Shown here one piece after another: positions 26,787 to 40,637 of a stretch of DNA of 64,000 nt. The stretch spans positions 256,001-320,000 of the forward strand of contig CAVTTN010000002.1 of assembly GCA_963737655.1 (NCBI GenBank), written 5' to 3'. The notes under the pieces are model-generated. The model was given only the letters and a program-made list of their open reading frames with translations, did no database searches and was not told the origin of the DNA. Both the position numbers and the translations under genes were made by a program. The stretch is from an uncultured Planctomycetota bacterium. GTDB lineage: Bacteria > Planctomycetota > Planctomycetia > Isosphaerales > Isosphaeraceae. Each line of letters begins with the position of its first letter. Positions within the stretch are counted from its first letter, which is position 1.

Positions 26787-27563
26787 CCGAACCCCCAACC
26801 GATCCCCCGCCCCAGGGTGACACTCGGGCCATCGACAAGTGCCGGCGCCATCCAGACAAATTTACATGATCGCCCGGAATCGAAACGTCCGCACGCCTCG
26901 CCATCCCTCGCCCGACAACGCAACGACCCACTCCCGGACCCCAGGTCCATGCCCCGACCCAACCCAATAGCCCCCCTCACGGCCCACCTCCGAATCTCGG
27001 AAATCGAAGCCCCAACGACGCCACCCGCACGTACCAAACCATCGAAAGCCACCCCCACCCCCGATCACCCAATCCCCGAGGACGCCCCTCCCCAACGGCC
27101 CCTCGAACGCTCCCCGGACAATCCGCCACTCCCGACGAAAACACGGCGGCGAAGCTCCAAAACCCGATCGGCGCAAGCCGTTCCAGGCTCAACCTTTGCT
27201 CGTCAAATCTCAACTAATTCAAAAATCAACAAACATGGCCTGGCACAAGTGACTGCGCGCTAGAAATCCCTGCAAAAACCGCCCTCCGGCGCGTTTTTCG
27301 GGAAAAAGTGTAGTCAACTTCCGCGAAATTCTCGATCGCACATCTCCATGAGGAATAAAATTTGAGCAATCAAACGAATCAATCAGATTCCGACCCAAAA
27401 ATCCAAAACACCGGCAATCCCCAGCGCGCCAACCGCCCGCAAACCCCACCCCACCCGACTCTCTCCAGCCAATCCCCCGAAAACCCCAGACCACCCAGTC
27501 TCGCAGCACCAGTGACCATTCAGAGAGTCATCGTCGGGGATTGAGGCTCATGTGGCATGCTTG

Positions 27564-27628
27564 CGGTGCATGGCACTGGTGAGCATTTCTGGGTGCCACT
27601 GGTCGTACTCGACCAGTGCCATGCGCCG
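27564..27628. repeat. Nested inverted repeat upstream of the array promoter
   Basis: 27564-27580 matches the reverse complement of 27612-27628 at 16/17; alternative hairpin CACTGGTCG-TACT-CGACCAGTG at 27597-27618. Confidence 0.6.
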
Positions 27629-27674
27629 TCGTTGCAATCGGCGAAGCAACGAGGAGAGAATCCCGAAAAAATCC

Positions 27675-27769
27675 TTGCAAGGCGAACTCCCCGCCGGCAA
27701 AATCAATCACCGGTCCGAGATTATCCATCCGAAACGACGTGATAAACCGCATCATTTCGGACGTATAAT
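27675..27769 (+). promoter_or_regulatory. Candidate cassette promoter(s) Pc
   Basis: TTGCAA(27675)-17 nt-CAAAAT(27698), and a perfect TATAAT at 27764-27769, 45 nt upstream of the first core site and facing the array. Confidence 0.5.
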
Positions 27770-27799
27770 CCCGCAGATTCGGAGATTCTGCGTCACTTT

Positions 27800-27821
27800 C
27801 GATGTCTACTTCATGTTAGGC
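27800..27821 (+). other. attI-like integron recombination site
   Basis: GTTAGGC (GTTRRRY) at 27815-27821 opens the first cassette with no attC palindrome upstream; degenerate inverse box GTCTACT at 27804-27810. Confidence 0.6.
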
Positions 27822-27840
27822 GTCCTGCAAATCGTGGTGC

Positions 27841-27993
27841 CTATAGCGATATCTTTCCGGTCAGGAGCATCCAACTCCGAATCAGGGTCAGGACGAGACA
27901 CGTCAACATCCCCGCCCAGGCCCACCGGAACGTCGGCCGCCACTCCGGCCGTAGTTCTTCCATCGCCCACTGCCGTCTCAGCCAAGCGACCAT
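27841..27993 (-). CDS. 50-aa Trp-rich single-TM peptide, inverted in cassette A (copy 1, 27816-28090)
   Basis: MVAWLRRQWAMEELRPEWRPTFRWAWAGMLTCLVLTLIRSWMLLTGKISL*; fills the cassette; GAGG lies upstream in the attC bottom strand. Confidence 0.45.
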   Translation of the reverse strand: MVAWLRRQWAMEELRPEWRPTFRWAWAGMLTCLVLTLIRSWMLLTGKISL

Positions 27994-27996
27994 GAC

Positions 27997-28096
27997 GCCT
28001 AACCTCGCGCTGCAGCGGACCCGCAACCGCCGCCACGATTGTTGTAGTCTCAACACAACTCAGGCGGGTGCGGGCCGCTGAGCTTGGTCGTTAGGC
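27997..28096 (+). repeat. attC site 1
   Basis: GCCTAAC-5nt-GCTGCAGC...GCTGAGC-6nt-GTTAGGC; R''/L''/L'/R' layout with one extra-helical base. Confidence 0.93.
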
Positions 28097-28754
28097 GGCT
28101 CAGGAGTCGAAGCCTTCGGTCGTGCTCGTCGTCGGCCTCGCCGGTCGCGCCTCGGCTCGACGACGCCATCGGTCGGGCCCCTGGAGTCGGCCTCGGCGGT
28201 GGTGCGCGTCGTCGCCCTCGCCGGCCGCGCCCCCGAGGTCGGGCCCGTCGGCCGGCGCCCCCCTTGCCAACGCCGTCGGTCCGTGCCAGGATCGTCGGTG
28301 TCGGCGCGTGGGGCGTCGCCGGGGCGCCGCCTAACCCGGCGCTGCAGCGGACCCGGCCCGCGGTCGACGATCACTCTCCTCTCAATCTCGCCGGGCGCGG
28401 GCCGGTCCGCTGAGCTTTGTCGTTAGGCGGCTCAGGAGTCGAAGCCTTCGGTCGTGCTCGTCGTCGGCCTCGCCGGTCGCGCCTCGGCTCGACGACGCCA
28501 TCGGTCGGGCCCCTGGAGTCGGCCTCGGCGGTGGTGCGCGTCGTCGCCCTCGCCGGCCGCGCCCCCGAGGTCGGGCCCGTCGGCCGGCGCCCCCCTTGCC
28601 AACGCCGTCGGTCCGTGCCAGGATCGTCGGTGTCGGCGCGTGGGGCGTCGCCGGGGCGCCGCCTAACCCGGCGCTGCAGCGGACCCGGCCCGCGGTCGAC
28701 GATCACTCTCCTCTCAATCTCGCCGGGCGCGGGCCGGTCCGCTGAGCTTTGTCG
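28091..28754 (+). repeat. Cassette B, two identical tandem 332-bp copies, no convincing ORF
   Basis: 28091-28422 equals 28423-28754 by eye, including attC. Confidence 0.88.
28329..28428 (+). repeat. attC site 2
   Basis: GCCTAAC...GCTGCAGCGGACC...GGTCCGCTGAGC...GTTAGGC. Confidence 0.93.
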
Positions 28755-28760
28755 TTAGGC
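28661..28760 (+). repeat. attC site 3 (identical to attC2)
   Basis: Same sequence offset by 332 bp. Confidence 0.93.
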
Positions 28761-28770
28761 GGCAGAGGCC

Positions 28771-29052
28771 ATGCACTACGTCGTCGCCCTTCTACCTGCC
28801 GTTGTTCTCATGGCCGCACTCATCGTCGCGGTTGTCTCGGCTCGCCGGCTCAAGCCGTGTCCATCATGCTGTCGGCGTGAATTGCGTTGCGTCAACTTCG
28901 TCAAGGCCACTGTCATCACCGACGACCGGCGTGCCCCGGACTCGTGGTCGTTCCATGCGTGTCGGGCATGCGGCGCAGCGTTCAAGCTCCATCGCGGCCG
29001 GTGGTCAAGCGTCGAAGATCGCGAACGCCACTACTTCGGCGGAGCCGCCTAA
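28771..29052 (+). CDS. Cassette protein: N-terminal TM helix plus zinc ribbon
   Basis: GAGG RBS; CPSC...CRAC; stop TAA lies in the attC R'' (GCC TAA C). Confidence 0.75.
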   Translation: MHYVVALLPAVVLMAALIVAVVSARRLKPCPSCCRRELRCVNFVKATVITDDRRAPDSWSFHACRACGAAFKLHRGRWSSVEDRERHYFGGAA

Positions 29053-29148
29053 CCTCGCGCTGCAGCGGACCCCGCACCGCCGCAACGGTTTATGCTATGA
29101 TTCAACGTCGCTCGGGCGGTGCGGGTCCGCTGAGCTTCGGCGTTAGGC
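29047..29148 (+). repeat. attC site 4
   Basis: GCCTAAC...CCCGCACCGCC / GGCGGTGCGGG...GTTAGGC. Confidence 0.93.
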
Positions 29149-29167
29149 GTCCTGCAAATCGTGGTGC

Positions 29168-29320
29168 CTATAGCGATATCTTTCCGGTCAGGAGCATCCA
29201 ACTCCGAATCAGGGTCAGGACGAGACACGTCAACATCCCCGCCCAGGCCCACCGGAACGTCGGCCGCCACTCCGGCCGTAGTTCTTCCATCGCCCACTGC
29301 CGTCTCAGCCAAGCGACCAT
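29168..29320 (-). CDS. 50-aa TM peptide, cassette A copy 2 (29143-29417)
   Basis: Identical to copy 1 at offset 1327. Confidence 0.45.
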   Translation of the reverse strand: MVAWLRRQWAMEELRPEWRPTFRWAWAGMLTCLVLTLIRSWMLLTGKISL

Positions 29321-29323
29321 GAC

Positions 29324-29423
29324 GCCTAACCTCGCGCTGCAGCGGACCCGCAACCGCCGCCACGATTGTTGTAGTCTCAACACAACTCAGGCGGGTGCGG
29401 GCCGCTGAGCTTGGTCGTTAGGC
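29324..29423 (+). repeat. attC site 5 (identical to attC1)
   Basis: Same sequence as 27997-28096. Confidence 0.93.
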
Positions 29424-29440
29424 GGCGGAGGCTTTGTCCC

Positions 29441-30211
29441 ATGACGATGTTTCGGGCATTCTCAGGCTTCGCTTGCCACGGCGAGACTGTGGCGTCTAAC
29501 AACCGAGAAGCCTGCACGAACGGCCATAGCCGGCTGGGAATCCCGATCTTGTACTTCGGTCAGGCTCGCGGTGCAGAGTACCAGTGGATTCACTTCAACG
29601 AGAATGACCTGCCCGGGACGGAGATGGAACTCGAACGGGCGGTCCAGATGAATCCCGAAAGCACCCTCATTTTGGGAGACGAGGTAAACGCGCGGATGGG
29701 CGCCAAAGATTACGCTGCGGCCTACGTCCATTGGTTCAACTGGCTCAAGGAGCGTAGTCCGGTCACAAGGCTTTCAACCTGCGGGTTCGAGGCCAACCAC
29801 AATCCGTTTGTCTTCGCGGAAGAATTCATCATCGAAGCGCGGAAGACCGTTTATGTCGATGAGTTTCGCTTCAACGCGGCGTTCGCTGTTTCTGGCGACC
29901 TGGGCGCTTTTGATTCGTATCTTGGACAGGCTCAGACGTTCGCGAACAGCCACGGCTACCGGAACAAGTACTGCATCGGCTCATTCTTCTCCGATCCGGG
30001 GCTGAGTGCGGACCAACTGCGGAAGGCAATGCAGTTAATTCATCGACAGGGGACGATCAAGGAAGCCGTGTACTGGAGCTTTGAGAGTCATACGACCGCC
30101 GTGCATAACCCGCTCGCGGAGTACGACGGCAACCAAGTTCCGCGATTGAACCTCCTCGGCAGAACTTTTGCCCAAACCGTCCGAGACATCGCTGAGGGGA
30201 CTTCGATCTGA
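29441..30211 (+). CDS. Cassette hypothetical protein, possibly a glycoside-hydrolase-like barrel
   Basis: GGAGG RBS, 256 aa, lower GC; LILGDEVN resembles the clan-A NE motif (weak). Confidence 0.6.
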   Translation: MTMFRAFSGFACHGETVASNNREACTNGHSRLGIPILYFGQARGAEYQWIHFNENDLPGTEMELERAVQMNPESTLILGDEVNARMGAKDYAAAYVHWFNWLKERSPVTRLSTCGFEANHNPFVFAEEFIIEARKTVYVDEFRFNAAFAVSGDLGAFDSYLGQAQTFANSHGYRNKYCIGSFFSDPGLSADQLRKAMQLIHRQGTIKEAVYWSFESHTTAVHNPLAEYDGNQVPRLNLLGRTFAQTVRDIAEGTSI

Positions 30212-30269
30212 AAAATCTAGGAATGCCATTCAGCGTCAGTTCAATTTAGCGGCTCCGGCCGATCCGCCT

Positions 30270-30649
30270 CTTCGTGAACTCTTTGGCTGGGAACGGCCAT
30301 CGACGCGCAACACTACCCCAACCCCAGGCTTTGTGGCCGGGCAGCGGCGAGGTCCGGGTAGCAAACCGACGGATTCAAGAGCGGCGGACGAGGCGCGGGC
30401 CGAGAGGGGAGTCGGTTACGTTTGCAGTCTCTTCGACGGGAACATCCCCGCGAGTCGGCTCGCGGGGCGTCGCCAATGACCGGATCACGACCTCTCGGGC
30501 CAGGCTAACCTACGGGCAGGGAGCACCAAGGTGGAGACGGCCGGGAGGCCCGCGCCACACTCAGGCTACGCCGCGCCGGGTCGGCGGGCAAGTCGTCCCC
30601 GACCCCCGTTCACGCCCCGTCGGGAGCGGACGAAGGCCGCAGGATGGTT
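30270..30649 (-). mobile_element. Non-autonomous IS110 derivative (both ends plus putative bridge RNA, no transposase) inserted in attC6
   Basis: Junctions GCCT|CTTCGTGAACT and GGATGGTT|AACCTTGCGCTGCAGCGG; 30426-30649 homologous to 33762-33985. Confidence 0.8.
30420..30620 (-). ncRNA. Putative bridge RNA, copy in the non-autonomous element
   Basis: Target match CTAACCT 30505-30511; donor match CTCTTCG 30429-30435; boundaries approximate. Confidence 0.6.
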
Positions 30650-30710
30650 AACCTTGCGCTGCAGCGGACCCCGGCCACGGGCCGCGCTTTCTCATTCTCA
30701 CAAGCTCGGA
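30650..30710 (+). repeat. attC6 left-arm remnant (right arm deleted)
   Basis: AACCTTGCGCTGCAGCGGACCCCGGCC, then interrupted by the AAAAGGGGAC element. Confidence 0.75.
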
Positions 30711-30888
30711 GGGTCAAAAAGGGGACGGGAGGGTCAAAAAGGGGACGGAGCGAATAAATTCAGCTTTTTGCATTTTGCCGCGTCTCATCCAGGCCGAACT
30801 TATTCACTCCGTCCCCTTTTCGGCCCCACGTCCCCTTTTCGGCCCCACCGTCCCCTTTTCGGCCCCACTCCGTCCCCTTTTCGGCCCC
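30708..30888. repeat. AAAAGGGGACGGAG inverted-repeat element with tandemly amplified ends
   Basis: ~30-bp imperfect IR; 20-bp unit x2 on the left, CGTCCCCTTTTCGGCCCC x4 on the right. Confidence 0.75.
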
Positions 30889-30889
30889 G

Positions 30890-31599
30890 GCCAAGACGAC
30901 CCGGAGGCGCTGGCGGAATTGGCCAAGGGGCGGCTGCGGGCCAAGATCCCGGCGCTGCGGCTGGCGCTTCGCGGGAAGGTGACCGAGCACCACCGCTTCC
31001 TGCTGCGGCTCCTGCTGGACCACTACGAGGCGCCGGAGGCCCTGATCGGCCGACTGGGGAGCGGATCGACCGGGTGCTGGCGCCGTACGCCGAGGCGGTG
31101 GAGCGGCTGGAGACGATCCCCGGGGTCGGCCGCCGGGTCGCCGAGATCGTCGTCGCGGAGCTGGGCGTGGAGATGGGGCAGTTCCCGACGGCTCGCCACC
31201 TGGCGAGCCGGGCCGGGATGTGCCCCGGGAACAACGAGAGCGCCGGCAAGCGCCGCAGCGGCAAGACGACCAAGGGGAGCCGCTGGCTACGGACGGCCCT
31301 GATCCAGGCGGCGCACGCGGCGGGCCGGAGCAAGGCGACGTATCTGGGGTCGGGGTACCGTCGGCTGGCATCGCGGCGCGGGGCGAAGCGAGCGGCGGTG
31401 GCGGTGGGCCATACGCTGCTGGGGATCATCTACGAAGTCCTGGGCCGGGGGACGACCTACGAGGATCTAGGCCCCTGCTACCTGGAGCGGTTGGAGCCCG
31501 AGCGATTGACCCGGCAACTGGTCAGGCGCTTGGAACGGCTCGGCCACAAGGTTACATTGGAACCCAACGAGGCGGCCGCGTAGGGCGCATTTTCAGAAC
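30890..31599 (+). pseudogene. 5'-truncated, frameshifted IS110 transposase (second lineage) with its 3' end
   Basis: TIPGVG, FPTARHLAS.AGMCPGNNESAGKR, LERLGHKVTL; TAG 31583; end ATTTTCAGAAC|AGGC. Confidence 0.88.
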
Positions 31600-31618
31600 A
31601 GGCGGCGGAGGACGGCGT

Positions 31619-32191
31619 ATGGCGAAGGCTCGTGTATCGGACGTCTTCTCCGCGTATCGCCTCTCCGGCGAGCCTATTCCCGGCGATGTCGCGATCCTCC
31701 TGAAACAAGCGGAGGAACTGGCCGAGCGCTCGGGGATCGAGCTGAACTGGAAGAAGGTCTGGTCCCCATGGTCCGATACGAGCTATCTCACCAAGTCGGA
31801 CCGCCAGAACCCAGATACCATGGCCAACGTCCGGGCGATTGCGGATGTGTGCAAACTGGTCGCATTCGTCGCCGCGACCGACGAGGATGAGTGCATCGGC
31901 TACTGGCGAGGTCCGCGCATGCGTCCGGTCAAGAACTCCCCACTCGTCCTCTTCGACAACGAGGGGCAATTCACGCTATGCGGCTCCAGTTTCACCGAGG
32001 CCGTCTTGTATCAGGCCCCCGACGAGGAAGGATTCGCCGAGTTGAGGGATTGGTTCCGCTCACTCGGCATTGAGGTGCAAGCGGAGAGCATCGAGGATCT
32101 CGCGTGCAACACAGATGACCCTGCCCCCGACAAGCTGCACCACGAATTATACGAGCGATACCTGGGCCTGACGCCCGGCGCCTCCCCGTGA
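31619..32191 (+). CDS. Cassette protein, SUKH/SMI1-KNR4-like immunity-type (tentative)
   Basis: GGAGG RBS; IGYW...PLVLFDNEGQ; stop supplied by the IS end. Confidence 0.55.
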   Translation: MAKARVSDVFSAYRLSGEPIPGDVAILLKQAEELAERSGIELNWKKVWSPWSDTSYLTKSDRQNPDTMANVRAIADVCKLVAFVAATDEDECIGYWRGPRMRPVKNSPLVLFDNEGQFTLCGSSFTEAVLYQAPDEEGFAELRDWFRSLGIEVQAESIEDLACNTDDPAPDKLHHELYERYLGLTPGASP

Positions 32192-32343
32192 ACTCTTCGC
32201 GCCGGCGGTTCGGCATCGGTTGATACTATGTGGGCGTGATCATCGATCGGCCCGCATCCCCCCCGGCCCCCGCGACGACGGGGACGGCCCGATCCGGCTC
32301 GGCGGGGCTTGCGGCCGGGCGCCCCGCCTCCGACCCGTCGCCC

Positions 32344-33696
32344 TCACGACGGCGGCGACGGCGGCGACTTCGCCACCAGCTCGTAGCCCAGCGACCTCGC
32401 CTTGCGCCGCAGCGAACGCTCCTGCTTCCGCCTCACCTCCGCCTCGTACTCCGCCAGCGACCTCGACACGTACTCCTCGCCGTGCCTGAGCAGCCGGTAC
32501 ACCAGCCGCGACAGCTTGTGCGCCGTCGCCGTGATCGCCCCCCGGCCGCCGATCCGGCCCTTGATCCGCCGGTAGAACTGGCCCGTCGCCGTCGCCGTCC
32601 GGCCCGCCGCCTGCGCCGCCATCCGCAGCGCCTGACCCACCCGGTTCTTGCCCTTGCGGGGCGTGCGACGCCGCTCGGTCTTGTTGCTCCGGTCGGTCCG
32701 CGGGCAGAGGCCCAGCCAGCTGGCGAAGTGCTTCTCGCTCGGGAACCGCCCCACGTCGCCGCCGAGCTCGGCCAGGATCACCGTCGCCGTCGTCGCGTCG
32801 ATCCCCTCGATGGCCGTCAGGTCCACGCCCATCGCCCGGGCCAGCTTGGCCGGGGCGTCGAACCGCACGTCGTTGGCCTTGCGGCCGCGACGCCGCGGCC
32901 TCGGGGCGACCGGCTCGCCCCCGGAGCGGTCGGGCAGGCGGTCCAGCTCCTCGGCGATCCGGGCGTCGCACTCGTCGACCTGGCGGTGGAGGTAGTGGTA
33001 CAGGTCGGACGCCTGCTTCAGGGCGAACAGGTGCTCGGGCCGCCAGGTGCCCTCCAGGGCCCGGGCGATCTCCGCCTCGTCCCGGGCGCACTGCTCGTGC
33101 CGCAGCGCGGCCAGCTTCGCCGGGTGGCGCTCGCCGGCGAGGATGGCGGCGATGATCGCCGTGCCGGTGACGCCCGTGATGCTGCTGACGACCTCGGTCA
33201 GCTTCACATTCATCTGCTCCAAAGCCTTCTGCATGTGCTGGACGTGGTGCGAGGCGTACCGCACGAGCATCTGCCGCTGCCGCCAGTAGCCGCGCAGGGC
33301 CAGGACGGCCCCGGGCGGGCGGAAGGACGGGCGGAGCAGGCCGCAGGCGTGGAGGCGCTGGAGCCACTGGCAGTCGAGCCGGTCGGTCTTGGGCCGGGCG
33401 CCGCAGTGGCTGGCCTGGCTCGGCTCGATGAGGAAGACCTCGAAGCCGCGCGATTCGAGCAGCTCGAACAGGGGGATCCAGTAGACGCCGGTGGACTCCA
33501 GGACCACCGAGGTGACGCCCTCGGCCCGGAACCAATCGGCCAGGGCGTGGAGGTCGGCCGAGCAGGCGCCGAAGGTGCGGACCCGTCCGGGCCCGACGCA
33601 GGCGACGTGGTTGTCGGAGTGGACGTCGACGGCGGCGGCGTGGGGGTGGACGACCGGCAGGGACGCGTCGGGATCGGGGGGCGTGCGGCGACTCAT
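32344..33696 (-). CDS. IS110 DEDD recombinase/transposase, 450 aa
   Basis: AVDVH, LESTGVYW, KTDRLD (DEDD); IEGID, FPSEKHFASWLGLCP....S. Confidence 0.95.
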   Translation of the reverse strand: MSRRTPPDPDASLPVVHPHAAAVDVHSDNHVACVGPGRVRTFGACSADLHALADWFRAEGVTSVVLESTGVYWIPLFELLESRGFEVFLIEPSQASHCGARPKTDRLDCQWLQRLHACGLLRPSFRPPGAVLALRGYWRQRQMLVRYASHHVQHMQKALEQMNVKLTEVVSSITGVTGTAIIAAILAGERHPAKLAALRHEQCARDEAEIARALEGTWRPEHLFALKQASDLYHYLHRQVDECDARIAEELDRLPDRSGGEPVAPRPRRRGRKANDVRFDAPAKLARAMGVDLTAIEGIDATTATVILAELGGDVGRFPSEKHFASWLGLCPRTDRSNKTERRRTPRKGKNRVGQALRMAAQAAGRTATATGQFYRRIKGRIGGRGAITATAHKLSRLVYRLLRHGEEYVSRSLAEYEAEVRRKQERSLRRKARSLGYELVAKSPPSPPS

Positions 33697-33749
33697 GGCG
33701 AGGGCTCCGGCGGGTGGGGGGCCAAGCCGTCGCGGGCCGAGAGGGGGTC

Positions 33750-33960
33750 CGGGGACGAGGTAGTCTCCCCGACGGGAACGTCGCGGGGCCGTGTTGACAC
33801 GGCGCCGCGGGTCACCAATGATGGGGCCACGGCCTCTCGGGCCATGCTAACCTGCGGGCGGCGAGCACCAGGGAGATGACGGCCGGGAGGCCCGCGACGG
33901 CGTGCCCCAGCGTATCGCGCCCGGTGGTCGGGGCCACCCCCGGTTCACGTCCGTCGGGGA
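33750..33960 (-). ncRNA. Putative bridge RNA in the upstream non-coding end
   Basis: Target match CTAACCT 33847-33853; donor match CTCCCCG 33765-33771; conserved stems; boundaries approximate. Confidence 0.65.
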
Positions 33961-33985
33961 GCGGTCGGAGACGGCGCGGAGAGTT

Positions 33986-34080
33986 AACCTCGCGCTGCAG
34001 CGGACCCGGCCCGCAGCGGCGACTTCCGCGTTACCGTCGTCTGCCCGGCGGTGCGGGTCCGCTGAGCTTCGTCGTTAGGC
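33986..34080 (+). repeat. attC7 (R'' split by IS110)
   Basis: AACCTCGCGCTGCAGCGGACCCG...CGGGTCCGCTGAGCTTCGTCGTTAGGC. Confidence 0.9.
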
Positions 34081-34104
34081 GCCGGCTACGGGAAAGGCTG
34101 ATTA

Positions 34105-34299
34105 ATGTCTGGTACGATCCGAACGGCCCTCTCCGCGGTCCTCCTGCTTATGGCGGCGGCCTGCCTCTTCCTCTTTCTCGCAGCCCGGGAGGCACCTCGC
34201 GATAGCTGGCGGGCATTTGGGATTATCTACGGCGTCGTGGGTCTCTCGTGTCTGCTCGGGGCGGGATCGTTGCTCTGGTCGAAGCGTCCTCGCGGATAG
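34105..34299 (+). CDS. Cassette small two-TM protein (64 aa)
   Basis: Starts 24 nt after the core site; two hydrophobic helices. Confidence 0.65.
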   Translation: MSGTIRTALSAVLLLMAAACLFLFLAAREAPRDSWRAFGIIYGVVGLSCLLGAGSLLWSKRPRG

Positions 34300-34384
34300 C
34301 CCCGCGCACCGGCGGGCCGCGGCGAACTCTTTGAATCATCCGCCTATCCTCGGCGGGCCGGCCCGCCGAGAATGATCACCGGGC
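34294..34384 (+). repeat. Highly degenerate attC
   Basis: Overlaps the stop codon; CGGGCCGGCCCGCCGAG resembles the attC2 right arm CGGGCCGGTCCGCTGAG; cores decayed. Confidence 0.4.
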
Positions 34385-34420
34385 GGTCGCGCGGCGTTCG
34401 ATCCAGGGAGGCGTCTGGGG

Positions 34421-34843
34421 ATGAATGACGAAGACACGCGGGTCTTGTTCGAGGAGCCGCAGATCCTGGCGGTGGCTATCTTCGTCGCCCTGCTCGTGGT
34501 CGCGATCCTCATGATCCCCTGCTTCTACATTTCCCGTCGCCGGGAGACGAGGGTCCTGGCGGGCGTCGGTGCCTCCATGTTCGCGATCGCGGCGGTCGTT
34601 TATGGAGACCTGGCGTTCACTCGCTGGGCACTTTACGATGGCGGCCATGGTCGCTCCCCCGGGACGGCCCCGTTAAAGGATTGGCTTGTATTCGCGGCAA
34701 TCAATGCGGTCCTGGCGATCGTGGGCTCAATTCCTGGCGGGGTGCTGGGCTTGGCCATCGGGTTGCTGATCGAGCGAAGGCACCGAAGACGAACCGGAGC
34801 GAACAAGTCGCCGATCGAGCCGTCGGACGCCGCCTCCCCGTGA
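34421..34843 (+). CDS. Cassette three-TM membrane protein
   Basis: GGAGG RBS; ends GCC TCC CCG TGA within an IS end. Confidence 0.7.
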   Translation: MNDEDTRVLFEEPQILAVAIFVALLVVAILMIPCFYISRRRETRVLAGVGASMFAIAAVVYGDLAFTRWALYDGGHGRSPGTAPLKDWLVFAAINAVLAIVGSIPGGVLGLAIGLLIERRHRRRTGANKSPIEPSDAASP

Positions 34844-34915
34844 ACTTTGAACGGGCGCATACTGTCGAGGACTGATGGTATGTTCGAGCGATTCCGTGCG
34901 CGCATGACGTCCCCT
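34836..34915 (-). mobile_element. Solo IS110 end at a former attC R''
   Basis: GCCT|CCCCGTGAACTTTG...; homologous to 35159-35190 and 37674-37755. Confidence 0.7.
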
Positions 34916-34971
34916 GCCCCCCCGCATTCGTCGGGTGTGATCCTCACGGGGGGCGGAAAAGGGGACGGAGG

Positions 34972-35114
34972 TGCTCTGTAGAAAACCCTCTTGAGAATGA
35001 GGAAAACGAGTAGGTCCGACTTCAGTCGGGCCTACAAAATAAGACCTTCTTGTAGGCCCGACTGAAGTCGGACCTACTCGTTTCCTTCTCCATCACCGGG
35101 TTTTCTACAAAGCA
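34972..35114. repeat. 143-bp palindromic REPIN/MITE-like element flanked by 9-bp direct repeats
   Basis: TGCTCTGTAGAAAACCC...GGGTTTTCTACAAAGCA; inner GTAGGTCCGACTTCAGTCGGGC doublet; GGACGGAGG at 34963-34971 and 35115-35123. Confidence 0.75.
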
Positions 35115-35158
35115 GGACGGAGGGAATTCTGAGCTTCCCGAGCCACTGAAGGCCGCCT

Positions 35159-35190
35159 CCCCGTGAACTTTACACGGGCGTATACCATCG
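35159..35190 (-). mobile_element. Solo IS110 end, truncated
   Basis: GCCT|CCCCGTGAACTTTACACGGGCGTATAC. Confidence 0.65.
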
Positions 35191-35322
35191 GGCGAGGAAA
35201 AGGGGACGGGGCGAGGAAAAGGGGACGGGCGAGGAAAAGGGGACGGAGCGGAATGCCACGAAGTTAGTGGTAAATCCCGAACTGGAGAAGGGGACGGAGA
35301 ACTGGAGAAGGGGACGGAGGGA
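35190..35322. repeat. Tandem AAGGGGAC end repeats
   Basis: GGGCGAGGAAAAGGGGAC x3; GAACTGGAGAAGGGGACGGA x2. Confidence 0.75.
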
Positions 35323-35351
35323 ATTACGAGGTTACTGTGTCGTCAAAGATC

Positions 35352-35451
35352 GCCTAACCTCGCGCCGCATCGGACCCCGCACCGTCGCGACCTCCTTCGT
35401 GTTATCATGACTCACTCGGCGGTGCGAGTCCGCTGAGCTTGGTTGTTAGGC
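35352..35451 (+). repeat. attC site 8
   Basis: GCCTAAC...CGCACCG / CGGTGCG...GCTGAGC...GTTAGGC; slightly decayed L''. Confidence 0.88.
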
Positions 35452-35559
35452 GGCGACAAACACGACCCCCACTTGAGGCTTGAAACGGTGAGCCAATCGG
35501 GCGTCAAGTCTCCCTGAGGGGAACATCGAAACGCGACGACCACTCTTGCGAGGGCTGAT

Positions 35560-36321
35560 ATGGCGAGCACCCAACGCACGATTGTTGAGGCGGAAGTCAA
35601 GAAGCCGTCTCCGGACTGGACCGCGGCGATCGACAACCTGAATGCCCTGACCATGGTCGAGATGCTTCCCACCCTCGCCGGCCTGGCTCCATCGATCCGC
35701 AAAGAGGTGGTGAGCCAGGCCTGGAAGCTGCTCTCCGTCCAGCGCGGCTGGAAGGACTGCTACGAACGCATCGAGTTCGCGGCCGAGGTGGTCACGGAAC
35801 AGAAATTCAAGCAAGACGACACCAGGGCCCCCGCCGGCCAGATTCAGGACGCGACCAACTTCCTGGTCGCCCTCCTGAAACCGGCGAAGAGTCAGGCGGT
35901 GCAGGTCGGCTTCACCTCCGCAGATGACGCAGCGATCGCCGCCCTGCAGGAGATCATCCCGACGACGATAGCCGTCGGGCTAGAATTCGCCGGCAGCATC
36001 TTTTCACGGTCGGGCTCCTTCCGGTTCACCGCGCCGAAGCAGGGCGAGGCGACCGCGTCCGACTCGAACGTCCCCGTGCCGACGGGGACCGGGGCCGTGG
36101 GGTCGTATCACACCCACCCGGAGACAACGCGCAACTCCGAGAACTTTTCGCCACAAGACATGATGATCTGCCGTGGAAATGAGCAAATTCATCTGCCACC
36201 GCGCGTGTTCTACCTCGGCACCCCCAGCGGGAAGATCAAGAGGTTGATCCCGCCGGCCCTGCTCACCGGCCAGGACAAGGAGAATTTCGGCCTGCTTGGC
36301 AAGCTCACGATCCTTCGGTAG
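35560..36321 (+). CDS. Cassette protein with C-terminal JAB/DUF4329-like domain
   Basis: F.SADDAA.AAL...EFAG.I...YHTHP...FS..D (E-HxH-S-D JAMM pattern). Confidence 0.7.
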   Translation: MASTQRTIVEAEVKKPSPDWTAAIDNLNALTMVEMLPTLAGLAPSIRKEVVSQAWKLLSVQRGWKDCYERIEFAAEVVTEQKFKQDDTRAPAGQIQDATNFLVALLKPAKSQAVQVGFTSADDAAIAALQEIIPTTIAVGLEFAGSIFSRSGSFRFTAPKQGEATASDSNVPVPTGTGAVGSYHTHPETTRNSENFSPQDMMICRGNEQIHLPPRVFYLGTPSGKIKRLIPPALLTGQDKENFGLLGKLTILR

Positions 36322-36328
36322 GCGGGTG

Positions 36329-36455
36329 AAAAGGGGACATCCCGGAATGGCATGAAGTCTCCGGCGAGCGAAACAGGGACGAAGTCGGGCCTACTCGTCT
36401 CGATCCTTCGAACGGGTTTTCGACGGGGCACTCCTGACCTCGTTTCGCCCCTTTT
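36329..36455. repeat. Partial AAAAGGGGAC/REPIN element
   Basis: AAAAGGGGAC...CCCCTTTT ends; GAAGTCGGGCCTACTCG and GGGTTTTC right-arm pieces. Confidence 0.55.
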
Positions 36456-36512
36456 GGTATGATCCACGGTTTCTGGGCGGTGCGGGTCCGCGGAGCTTTG
36501 GCCTTCGGAGGC
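36456..36512 (+). repeat. attC right-arm remnant
   Basis: TATGAT...GGGCGGTGCGGGTCCGCGGAGCTTTGGC...AGGC, similar to the attC4 right half. Confidence 0.6.
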
Positions 36513-36524
36513 GGGAGGTTCCTC

Positions 36525-36914
36525 GTGGGAATGGAATGGGCGGACTGGCGACCGGACGCTGAGGATCTGGATTTTCGGGGCATTACCTCGCGCTATTCCG
36601 ACATTCCCGGGCTCGTTCTTGACGAGTCTCGCGTGCCGGAGGCCTTCCGCCATCTCCTCCCGCTGGCCAGGCACTGGGCCGTGGGCGATGACCGCGAGCG
36701 GGCCAACCTGATGTGGCTCACGGACACCGAAGAACTCCGACGATTCGTCGATGCCGTCTGGACTCAGTTCGAGGCGATCGATGCCTGGTGCGGATCGCGT
36801 CGCGGCCTCGTCCCGGTCCCCGACGAGGTGGTCCTCTTCGATATGATGCTGGAGGCGGCGGCGGACGCCGTGGCCATCCACGCCGATGAACCGGATGAAG
36901 CCGCCTCCTCGTGA
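36525..36914 (+). CDS. Cassette hypothetical acidic protein (129 aa)
   Basis: GGGAGG RBS before GTG; ends GCC TCC TCG TGA within an IS end. Confidence 0.7.
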   Translation: MGMEWADWRPDAEDLDFRGITSRYSDIPGLVLDESRVPEAFRHLLPLARHWAVGDDRERANLMWLTDTEELRRFVDAVWTQFEAIDAWCGSRRGLVPVPDEVVLFDMMLEAAADAVAIHADEPDEAASS

Positions 36915-37004
36915 ACGAGTCTGGCCCGGGCGGCCGAATCCTCGCGGATCGTCCCTGCGACCGTTACGGCGGGGCTTGACATGGTCGGTTGGGCCGGGGA
37001 AGGA

Positions 37005-37172
37005 AAGGGGACATTCTTGCTCTGTAGAAAACCCGGTTCGCAGAGGTTTATCGAGTCGGTCCGACTTCGGTCGGGCCTACAAAAAGGCCTTATTTTGCAG
37101 GCCCGACCGAAGTCGGACCGACTCGATTCCTGACTCACACCGGGGTTTTCTACAGAGCAAGAACGTCCCCTT
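37005..37172. repeat. 168-bp palindromic REPIN/MITE-like element
   Basis: AAGGGGACATTCTTGCTCTGTAGAAAACCC ... GGGTTTTCTACAGAGCAAGAACGTCCCCTT. Confidence 0.8.
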
Positions 37173-37338
37173 GAAGGGCTTTCAATCTTTCCGACATGAC
37201 GCTTGCATGGCCAACAAAGGAGGGATAATTTCAAAGGGCGTTGACGCGTGTACGGAGCGAGGGCATAAGCCACCATTCTGCTTTTGGTCCGTCCAAGTCT
37301 TGTTCGGCGAAAACGAACCGCAAGCCAGGGGGGACGCC

Positions 37339-37681
37339 ATGCCGGTCAGCATCTGGCTTGAGCCTGTGAACGATAGGCCCTCGCATGATTACACGGGGCC
37401 GAGGGGTAAGATCGAATTACACGACGGCCAAGAAGTCCTGATCGGTAGACACCCTCACTGCGGAGTCGTCCTCTTCAGAGATAAAGTCGCGCAACCACTG
37501 CGTCATCTCGCAGCGTGATGGTGTCGCGGTGATCGAAGATTTAAGATCGAGATATGGCATCTCTGTGAATGGCCTACGCTTCGAGAAAGCGAGCCTCGCC
37601 CCAGGCGACCTGGTCATCATCGGCGATTTTGAATATATCGTGCGAGACATCCACTCCGAACTCGTCGGAGCCTCCTCGTGA
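37339..37681 (+). pseudogene. Stand-alone FHA-domain gene, frameshift near 37490
   Basis: LIGR...C..., then R.HC...IEDL.S.YG..VNG...L.PGD..IIG in the shifted frame; ends GCC TCC TCG TGA. Confidence 0.7.
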
Positions 37682-37755
37682 ACTTTGCACGGGCTTGTAC
37701 TGTCAAGGATTGATGGCGTGTTCGAACGATTTCATGTGTGCGCGTGAGGCCCCTG
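37674..37755 (-). mobile_element. Solo IS110 end
   Basis: GCCT|CCTCGTGAACTTTG...; homologous to 34836-34915. Confidence 0.7.
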
Positions 37756-37892
37756 AACCACGCGTGGGTCGGATGAGCTTCGCACGGGTTCGGCGCCGGT
37801 CCGGGGTGGGCGCCGCTCCTCCGCCCTGGCGATCTTACCAGGGCGACGGCTTGAGGCGGAGAATGGGGTCATGAGTGCTCGGAGGGCGGGCC

Positions 37893-38219
37893 GTGTCGGT
37901 CAACTTGCACCTATCGGTTACTGTCCGGGGTTACGACCCCTCGCGTGCCGGGGCGATCGGGCGCGAGGTGCGCGACGTGATCGAGTCGGAGGACCTCGGG
38001 GAGCAGCTTCCCCCGCTGGTCGAGACGTCCGACGGGTTGGGTCGGGTCCTGACCTCCCGCACGGATCGAGACGAGCCGGTCATCCTCAGTCGCGCCTTTC
38101 TGTGGGCACCGGGTTTCCTCCAGGCCCTCCGGCTCGCGGCCGAGCGAGGCAACGGAGGGCCCTGCGAAGTCGAGTTGGACTGCACTGATGCCGACGAGGA
38201 CGACCCGGAAGCCGATTGA
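37893..38219 (+). CDS. Hypothetical protein, probable last cassette
   Basis: GGAGGG RBS before GTG; followed by GCCC|CTTCGTGAAC (38228-38241), a variant IS end. Confidence 0.5.
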   Translation: MSVNLHLSVTVRGYDPSRAGAIGREVRDVIESEDLGEQLPPLVETSDGLGRVLTSRTDRDEPVILSRAFLWAPGFLQALRLAAERGNGGPCEVELDCTDADEDDPEAD

Positions 38220-38408
38220 GGCCGGGTGCCCCTTCGTGAACGATTTCGGCCCGGACGCTCGAACCCGCGCGGATCGACCCTGCGACCCTCTCGGCGGGGC
38301 TTGGCATGGCCGGTTAGGCCGTGTTAGCATGGAACGTCCGAGAGGAGAGAGGGCCCCCCGCTGGGGTTGCGGCCCGGCCTCGTCGCGATTCGGTCCGGAG
38401 GGGGCGTC

Positions 38409-40637
38409 ATGGCTGACTCACTGCGAATCCCGGTCCTGGCCCTCGCGCTGATGATGGGCGCGTCCGCCGCGATGGCCGACGATCCGCCTCGCCCGGACGG
38501 CCCGAAAGCCAAGGCGCCCGGACCCTCGAAGACGTCCCCGAGAACTTCGTCCCGCTCCACCCGCGGACTACCGAGGACCAGCAACGGATCGAGGCCCTCC
38601 GCCTCTATTCCTCGGCCCGGGCCTTGGAAGACCGCCACCAGTTGACCGAGGCGCTGGACCTCCTGGAGCAGGCCCGCAAGCTCGACCCGGATTCTCCCGC
38701 GGTCCTCCGGCGGATCAGCCGGCTGGATTTCGTCCTGGGCCGCGTCGATCAGGCGGTGGCCCACTCGCGGAGGGTCCTGGAGCTGGACCCGGGAGACACC
38801 GACACGCTCTCCCTGCTCGTCGCCCACTACCTCGAACGCAAGAGCGACCCCGCCGCCGCCGAGAACCTCTTGAAGAAGGTGGCGACCAGCCCGAAGCTGG
38901 ACAAGACCTCCGCCGGCTACTACCTCGTCCAGCGCGACCTGGGGGACATCTACGCCGACCTCCTGGACAAGCCCGACCAGGCCGCCGACGCCTACGCGAA
39001 GCTGATGGACGCCCTGGACGACCGCGCCGCCGTGGCCCTGTCGGCCATCGACAAGAAGCGAATCCTGGAAGACGACGAGGCGGGCTCCTACCTGAAGTTC
39101 GGCGAGGTATTCCTCCGCGCCAAGAAGTTCGGCCTGGCGATCCGGGCGTTTCAACGAGGGCTGATCTACCGCCCCGACCATCCCCAGATCCCCCGATTCC
39201 TGGCCGAAGCCCTGCTCCGAGGGGGCCGGGTCGACGACGCGCTGAAGACCCTCGAATCGTTCCTCCGCCGCCAGCCCACGGGCGTCGAGCCGTATGAGCT
39301 GCTCGCCGAGATCCTCACCGAGCTGAAGCAGGTGGACCAGATCCTCCCGAGGATCGAGGCCGCCGCCCAGGCCGACTCCAAGAACCTCCGGCTCCAGTTC
39401 CTCCTGGTCGATCGCTACCGGGCTTCGGGCCAGGAAGAGAAGGCCGACGCCCTGTTGAAGACCCTCCTGGCCAACCAGTCCGACCCCCAGGTCTACGCCG
39501 CCCTGGCCGCGTCGTACCTCAAGGAGAAGAAGGCCGAGGAGCTGGTCCGCCTCCTGGGCGAGGCGCTCGACGAAGCCCGGCGGACTCGACGCCGTGAAGC
39601 CGCAGGTCGATGCGCTCTCCGAAGACCAGGCGCTGGCCGCCCAGGCGCTGGACTCCGGCATCAAGCTGCTGGGCGAGAACCCGCCGAGGCTCTCCGACGC
39701 CTCGCGAAAAATCCTCGCCTACATCGCCGGCAAGGCCAAGCAGACCGATCGGCTCGTCCGCATCGATCGGCTGGCCGTCAAGAACGCGCCGACGCCGCAG
39801 AACTATCAGGAACTCTTCTTCGACCTCTTCCGGGCCGATCGCCACGACGAGGCCGAGGCGGCGATGGACGAATACCTGGCCAAGTTCCCGGTCGAACGGA
39901 CGAGCCGGACGGTCCTGCTGCTCTCGAAGAACCGCTACTTCGGCGGCAAGATCGAGTCGTCCCTGGAGGCGGCCCGGGAGGCCCAGAAGCTCGACCCGGG
40001 GGATCGCGACGTCCTGGAATTCCTCGGCTACGTCCTGTCCAAGGTCGGCAAGGACGACGACGCGATCGCCCTGTACGAAGACATGCTGCGTCGGTTCGCC
40101 AATGACGAGGACGCGGTCAAGAAGGCGCGATCGGGCCTGTCGACGGCGTTCGTGAACAAGGGGAACTTCGCCCGGGGGGAGGCGGAGCTGGAGATCCTCC
40201 TCCAGAAATTCCCCGAGGACCCCGGGGTGAACAACGACCTGGGCTACCTCTACGCCGACCAGGGCAAGAACCTCGAACGGGCCGAGATCATGATCCGCAA
40301 GGCGGTCGAGGAGGAGCCCGAGAACGCGGCGTACCTCGACAGCCTGGGCTGGGTCCTGTTCAAGAGGGGCAAGATGAAGGAGGCCGTCGAGCCCCTGGAA
40401 AAGGCCGCGAAGAGCGAGCGGGTGGATACCACGATCTGCGAGCACCTCGGCGACGTCCTGTTCCGGCTCCAGGAATACGGCCGGGCCAAGGAGTTCTGGA
40501 CCCGGGCGGAGGGGTACGCCACCAAGGCCCAACCGCCGGACAAGCGACTGGCCGAGATCAAGAAGAAACTGGCCGACCTGGAAAAGCTCGGACCGACCCG
40601 CTCCGACGCGGCCAAGGGCCCCGCCGACCGTCCCTGA
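38409..40637 (+). CDS. Exported TPR protein, frameshifts near 38520 and 39570
   Basis: Signal peptide; TPR helices; NNDLGYLYA...AYLDSLGW...EHLGDV. Confidence 0.8.

Follow-up and report, generated by a model that had tools for sequence, protein, structure and literature searches.

We analysed a window of 64,000 nucleotides from contig C2 of the genome of an uncultured planctomycete (assembly GCA_963737655.1; G000 below), in which an integron cassette array carries a 380-bp element that has both ends of an IS110-family insertion sequence (IS) and no transposase gene. This non-autonomous element, hereafter the mini, occupies 30270..30649 of the minus strand, on which it is read, with its left end at 30649 and its right end at 30270 (coordinates are window positions unless a contig or locus is named). 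The next-but-one attC holds an intact IS110 element at 32184..33985 (minus strand), the likely helper, with a recombinase gene at 32344-33696 and an RNA region at 33728-33898. A first-pass annotation, made from the letters alone, had drawn the mini at 30266..30660, slightly too wide: two junctions common to 28 copies fix it at 30270-30649. These junctions, together with the lack of coding capacity for a mobilising enzyme, agree with that annotation's description of an element having both ends and no transposase.

The element and its insertion sites

A BLAST search of the genome returned 28 copies, all of them 380 bp long and 87.7–100% identical, so the mini is no single-copy relic. They fall into 10 haplotypes, with 15 copies identical, and lie in a single orientation at GCCT^AACCT-type attC sites in eight cassette regions of contig C2. 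The right part of the target site together with the core (30266..30269, minus strand) reads GCCT on the plus strand, or core AG followed by GC in element orientation; it is GCCT in 26 of the 28 copies, GACT in one and TCCT in one. On the other side, the left target AACCT, found in 28/28 copies, and the left attC half lie at 30650..30700 (plus strand). The insertion into the site called attC6 at GCCT^AAC was therefore correctly placed as to the junction, but this attC is only a half site: its right half is missing and the attC pattern did not close. Past 30700 come a repeat and then a fragment of a second IS110 type.

Only one pair of minis shares both flanks; the other copies have unrelated flanks. 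One cassette is known in two states, filled at C2:1971064 and empty at C2:6787901; the 150 bp of its left flank are identical in both, and the pair shows that the mini inserted without target duplication. With no duplication in this pair, and with ends that are not inverted repeats, the mini is not a miniature inverted-repeat transposable element (MITE) in the classical sense.

The attC pattern yielded 56 complete sites in G000: 27 empty, 22 with a mini and seven with an IS (29/56 occupied). Six additional minis and one IS stand at attC starts that the pattern left unclosed. The variant AACCC, mismatched to the guide described below (vs AACCT), was found at 0 of 36 occupied sites and at 13 of the 27 empty ones, the latter representing about four distinct cassettes; on hand-collapsed cassette counts, its depletion from occupied attC sites has a rough Fisher p of 0.009. 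Occupancy by mini or helper of 29 of the 56 complete sites should alter cassette shuffling in the host.

The mini is built of three parts, all on the minus strand: a left end, an RNA of bridge type with two loops, and a right end. The left end (30608..30649) comprises core AA, the right donor CCATCC, a hairpin and the inverted motif GTGAAC. The predicted RNA core, with a closing stem, a target loop and a donor loop, spans 30391..30558 and scores 110 bits with our model R1, which was built with the mini sequence included. Within the target loop, the 5' arm at 30529..30538 is a candidate right target guide, suggested by a partial AGGCGG match and weak column concordance, and the left target guide AGGTTAG at 30505..30511 reads the attC R'' sequence CTAACCT. 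The donor loop contains a variable hairpin, CCCCGCGAG/CTCGCGGGG, at 30446..30467, taken from folds, whose sequence differs in other minis and still pairs, and the left donor guide CGAAGAG at 30429..30435. In the right end are a G-rich motif at 30316..30325, also present in the right ends of related full-length elements, the sub-terminal motif GTTCAC at 30274..30279, whose inverted partner is at 30608-30613, and finally the left donor 5-mer CGAAG at 30270..30274, which is CGGGG in the IS. No ORF (open reading frame) family is present; a 125-aa antisense frame was considered as a gene and rejected, having no Pfam match at E 1 and being broken in the related genome G003. An Rfam search of 27000-39000 gave 24 matches at E up to 1, of which none reached its gathering score and none lay on the element.

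Comparison of the mini with the resident IS showed 206/303 aligned columns identical over the left end and non-coding region with its RNA. Here the mini is the collinear, diverged copy that had been described, but the description does not extend to its 3' 120 bp, where only the G-rich motif and the last ~15 bp are in common. Both elements have the target guide 7-mer CTAACCT (30505-30511 in the mini, 33847-33853 in the IS). Their donors differ: the mini has CTCTTCG at guide (30429-30435) and terminus (30268-30274), the IS CTCCCCG at both (33765-33771 and 32182-32188). All these motifs, and the hairpin, are where the first-pass annotation had put them. The first CT of the terminal 7-mer is, however, target and core sequence, which leaves five element-encoded bases (CTTCG), and the mini and the IS differ at two of these five. 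The left donor guide equals the element's own terminus in 28/28 minis, and the left target guide equals the insertion site in 28/28.

The likely helper and its RNA family

The recombinase of the IS, encoded on the minus strand by an ORF of 450 aa, has the Pfam domains DEDD_Tnp_IS110 and Transposase_20, both above cut-off, and aligns to IS621 over both domains (E 5e-11). G000 has eight IS copies, six with the full ORF and two internally deleted; the motifs of the RuvC-like DEDD domain and of the Transposase_20 domain with its catalytic serine are present in 6/8. The IS has both junction types seen in the mini, and all six intact recombinase ORFs come with the same target guide as the mini's. 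Run on the whole genome, model R1 found 35 places, 28 minis and seven IS copies and nothing else; among these 35 there was no autonomous element with the mini's donor. The IS RNA lies upstream of the ORF, which starts at 33696, as it does in relatives, and this assigns the IS to the IS110 group. That upstream position, and an inverted motif of 6-7 bp that lies ~35 bp inside the left end, set it apart from the IS1111-attC group, whose sub-terminal inverted repeats are long and near both ends. Most close relatives of the recombinase are in records labelled Planctomycetota, which makes a planctomycete the probable host.

Of 79 related loci, most proved in an iterated profile search to carry this non-coding element upstream of their recombinase. 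RNAalifold on 33 sequences gave 15 pairs, nine of them with compensatory changes, and 96% of cells pair, vs 85.8% in shuffled and 37–50% in slid controls, the structure being drawn from the same alignment. The bridge-type RNA has two similar loops, each ending in CCCG-N6-AG. The first N6 follows the left flank in 75/89 distinct guide sets, against a mean of 6.6 and a maximum of 16 in 2000 permutations. The second N6 follows the right end of the element: it does so in 38/46 guide sets from distant relatives (mean of 7.0 and maximum of 16 in 2000 permutations) and in 46/48 within the near clade (mean of 25.6 and maximum of 35 when permuted); since the permutations treat kin as independent, these are counts and not probabilities. 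The 79 loci behind the 38/46 comparison comprised 68 that were parsed, six parse failures and five without an upstream match, and its eight misses include four cut contigs and one group whose other copies match by eye. Natural covariation of donor guide and element end, which the first-pass annotation had proposed from a single mini and a single IS, thus holds family-wide.

Junction cores were AA on the left in 78/81 cases and AG on the right in 47/48, and right-to-left joints in three loci (L031, L222, L228) carry AA. From these sequences the donor core would be AA and the target core AG, with exchange following the first base. In each loop the left guide is on the 3' arm, though the RNA lies upstream of the ORF. 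In relatives the sub-terminal motif pair, read by eye, changes jointly, for example to GTTCCT/AGGAAC or GTTTCT/AGAAAC. The G-rich motif at 30316-30325 is conserved in the relatives' right ends, where TGCGC follows it, ~45 bp inside the end. One related IS (L135) has an 11-bp donor unit, GTTCATGGGGA, in four tandem repeats at its right end.

Origin of the mini and what moves it

The mini is a real, recently amplified, non-autonomous bridge-RNA element. Twenty-eight copies of equal length, with agreement of guide and terminus far above permutation, are more than chance would give. We put a probability of roughly 0.8 on its being a non-autonomous IS110 element that is moved by the co-resident IS recombinase using the mini's own RNA. 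Such an element would have kept both IS ends and the bridge-type RNA without a recombinase gene. Its RNA would be transcribed and would bind the 450-aa recombinase of the co-resident attC-targeting IS, as IS621 and ISPpu9 suggest; the target loop (AGGTTAG) would select attC R'' sites, as that of the IS does, and the donor loop (CGAAGAG) would select the mini's own right end. The mini would then leave as a circle with right and left ends joined over an AA core, to judge by the right-to-left joints of relatives and by ISPpu9 and IS621, and the circle would insert between positions 1 and 2 of the AG core without target duplication. Because its donor differs from that of the IS at 2/5 positions, and donor-guide mismatches are generally poorly tolerated by IS621 (PMC11208160), one would expect the mini to rely on the RNA that it carries. 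Of the earlier picture of a MITE-like unit that brings its own guide and borrows a recombinase, the multiple copies and the self-matching guide are observed, and mobilisation in trans by the IS recombinase is probable by analogy.

The mini has a lineage of its own. A tree of 87 RNA regions placed the five mini rows together in a single clade (100/99, branch 0.27) that lies outside the one containing the resident IS, so the minis are not a recent deletion of their neighbour. A genome of the same genus, G003 (77% complete), has four mini matches, each at the start of an attC: one is complete, at 83% identity, and contig ends truncate the other three. Guide and terminus keep tracking each other in further copies, as the first-pass annotation had expected: they agree in the same-genus locus L002 and again in L031, where a mini directly follows an 84%-identical IS and where guide and end are both TGAAG, a matched C-to-T change relative to CGAAG. 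The taxon label of the L031 record may be a binning error. At L031:1820-2210 the mini sits at the right junction of its IS. The target guide of this mini, ACGG(TT)GGAG, is similar to ACGGGG, the right end of the IS, taken together with the core; it looks as if this mini had been re-aimed at its helper.

When minis are compared, their ends and RNA have diverged less than the two spacers: the values are 0.93, 0.89 and 1.0 vs 0.74 and 0.70 for G003, and 0.82, 0.76 and 0.87 vs 0.66 and 0.66 for L031. A 13-base patch in the RNA, CCTCCCGGCCGTC at 30536..30548 (minus strand), is that of the resident IS in 25/28 minis and is absent from other mini lineages; the other three copies and G003 keep an older form. 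The patch is most simply explained by gene conversion from the helper.

A search of 121 genomes of the family with a 14-mer of the mini-type end matched 20 other genomes at 21 loci. Of these loci, only the G003 mini (L274) and two relics in G002 (L276 and L282) are element-end-like, and RNA accompanies L274 alone; the others look like chance. A metagenome scan yielded at least 121 stretches, 80 of them with wide flanks, and those that were parsed included no additional mini-clade member. Independent internally deleted elements do occur (L255 in G064, L248 in G088, and L166), with ends and RNA kept and with the parent's donor; the young derivatives L255 and L248 show how minis can start.

Several observations weigh against a mini that is moved by its own RNA. 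A promoter and terminator scan found none of either (no sigma-70-like promoter), and the whole mini folds no better than shuffles (z -0.81). Among the relatives neither a right donor guide nor handshake pairs gave a clean diagonal, and the right target guide could be read only weakly; the best columns of the right-guide search reached z 4.1 (27/46) and z 5.1 (51/81), with no continuous diagonal and with kin not independent. The kinship ignored by the permutation tests belongs here too. Variation among the five minis is not significantly lower in RNA columns conserved across the family than in other columns (8/43 vs 41/124, Fisher p 0.08). Finally, G002 has a mini-type TGAAG end with a piece of recombinase (aa 308-353, 83%) immediately upstream of it. 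This relic is what remains of a broken, once autonomous parent, or else the product of a deletion within an IS-mini tandem such as that of L031, and it means that the private donor may come from an autonomous ancestor.

The last two observations favour a different account, in which the mini is mobile and its RNA is a passenger: two mismatches would not keep the IS RNA from reading the ends of the mini, and the match of guide and terminus would be inherited from an extinct autonomous parent. The existence of young deletion derivatives that share their parent's donor speaks for it as well. We consider it unlikely, given the further matched change within the mini clade (CGAAG vs TGAAG), the better preservation of the RNA than of the spacers, and the poor tolerance of IS621 for donor mismatches. 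Moreover, the lone GAAG guide set flagged as having a transposase gene downstream proved to be the loci of G000, in which every mini is a closed unit of 380 bp and the IS lies downstream of one; no other transposase-linked guide set has a GAAG donor. The covariation first noted between mini and IS is real in that both positions changed, but the two-base change is a single evolutionary event, possibly in an autonomous ancestor, and it may predate loss of the ORF.

Less probable still is a mainly regulatory RNA, as proposed for Ssr9, which would titrate the recombinase or an antisense RNA and damp the IS, with mobility secondary. Minis do outnumber intact IS copies, 28 to 6, and Ssr9 anneals to Asr9, with a proposed lowering of transposase expression (PMC8450116). 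Regulation needs no donor guide that tracks the element's own end, although it is compatible with movement by the mini's own RNA.

We regard as very improbable a dead deletion derivative that was passively amplified by integron cassette duplication or homologous recombination. One copy pair shares both flanks, a 512-bp mini-bounded segment (described below) is duplicated between arrays, and G000 has one integron integrase, adjoining its largest array, with none in the window's array. Against this are the unrelated flanks elsewhere and the empty/filled pair, which largely refute it, the presence of the same element in different attC sites of another species, and the position of the mini outside the resident IS clade.

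Least credible as helper is the second, distantly related IS110 type, which has a 480-aa open frame (C2:4847312; fragment at window 30900-31601) and is also found at GTTAG^GC-type integron sites, but whose non-coding region is unmatched by the RNA model, whose ends differ, and whose recombinase has 38% identity to the first over 118 aa.

Known systems and neighbouring features

The closest precedent for the mini is MITEPpu9 of Pseudomonas putida KT2440, a transposase-less IS110-family element bounded by copies of the ISPpu9 ends and encoding a small RNA (ssr9) like the IS leader; transposase makes circles of it, and it has been proposed to hitch-hike (PMC12288879). Ssr9 has the same sense as the leader and is partly complementary to the leader's antisense RNA (PMC8450116). 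Like the mini and its IS, MITEPpu9 and ISPpu9 have an AG core and a hairpin left end (in the anatomy of the A box), and they occur as an IS-plus-mini tandem, as in L031; the likeness is one of end anatomy. The B' end of MITEPpu9 (…GATAGAAG) differs from the B end of ISPpu9 (…GATGAGAG) at the positions that correspond to the left donor here. Unlike the mini, MITEPpu9 targets repetitive extragenic palindromic (REP) sequences rather than attC, and it has eight copies vs seven of its IS. In the available parts of both papers, Ssr9 is treated as a regulatory or hitch-hiking small RNA rather than as a bridge RNA, and a match between guide and terminus is not examined (PMC12288879, PMC8450116).

With IS621 the present system shares a DEDD and Tnp-serine recombinase, an RNA in a long left end (PMC11208160, PMC13626964), the order of target loop before donor loop, and left guides that equal the top strand up to the core. 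The left-guide arm is 5' in each loop of IS621 and 3' here (PMC11208160). Also unlike IS621 are the AG/AA cores with their unequal second base, the three-way junction, the sub-terminal inverted motif whose left copy lies ~35 bp inside, and the existence of a natural element without recombinase.

RNA-guided targeting of attC is already known for the IS1111-attC group (ISKpn4, ISPst6 and ISPa25, with seekRNAs), which like the mini inserts at one fixed attC position (PMC11187229). In those seekRNAs, as here, the match to the top strand comes ahead of that to the bottom strand, but their non-coding region lies downstream of the transposase gene and ours upstream (PMC11187229); by RNA position, the mini is not a member of that group. 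The available part of PMC11187229 describes no non-autonomous member. A literature search, whose coverage left out most subscription papers and ISfinder, found no earlier account of any non-autonomous element whose donor guide matches its own end; of the papers that it returned, only those on ISPpu9 were relevant.

If moved as we propose, the mini would be a minimal, self-guiding cargo of 380 bp. One bridge recombinase apparently serves two RNAs with the same target and different donors, a natural case of orthogonal donor programming, within a bridge-RNA family that has 3'-arm left guides, an upstream position and dozens of naturally re-aimed variants. PATE-like protein-less derivatives of IS200/IS605 elements encode omega RNA and use proteins in trans. 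They resemble the mini in being protein-less with a guide RNA of their own, and differ from it in that their RNA guides the TnpB nuclease and not the recombination that moves the element.

More broadly, and with rather less confidence than doubt, we suggest that IS110 recombinases have long-lived, ORF-less, RNA-only parasites. These would have a private donor address and be moved only by their own RNA. While competing for the helper protein, they could reach higher copy numbers than the helper (28 vs 6), acquire stretches of its RNA (25/28) and be re-aimed; the right junction of the helper may be such a new target in L031. On this view Ssr9/MITEPpu9 would be a second case that has gone unrecognised, which amounts to a direct reinterpretation of Ssr9.

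The second IS110 type is represented by the fragment at 30900-31601 and by G000:C2:4847000-4848550. In its leader, CGTGTTAG and CAGAACAG match the left flank (CACGTTAG) and the right end (CAGAACAG), with GCGGCGG next, and these matches suggest that its target is the GTTAG^GC crossover in attC R'/attI. The attC of the window mini would thus have been hit at both ends by different IS110 types.

Other observations concern the arrays. An identical 512-bp segment with two minis as its borders, containing an attC body and the next cassette gene, occurs in two arrays with differing outer flanks (G000:C2:1679246-1679757 and 1976982-1977493), apparently a single case of cassette movement that broke at minis and not at the IntI crossover. 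Duplicated cassettes are also seen in the window (27815-28104 equals 29142-29431, and 28071-28370 equals 28403-28702), and several arrays contain a short cassette of 332 bp whose attC has AACCC and is never occupied. At 34832, 35155, 36903, 37670 and 38228 are orphan right-end relics, GCC[T/C]C[C/T][C/T]CGTGAAC, at former attC R'' positions; they come from related elements with other donor 5-mers and are cut off by AAAAGGGGAC-type repeats. REP-like repeats of the form AAAAGGGGAC.../GTCCCCTTTT, with long palindromes, lie at 30700-30890, 34950-35330, 36330 and 37000-37170, where they coincide with array deletions, and similar repeats cut IS copies elsewhere in G000 and in G002.
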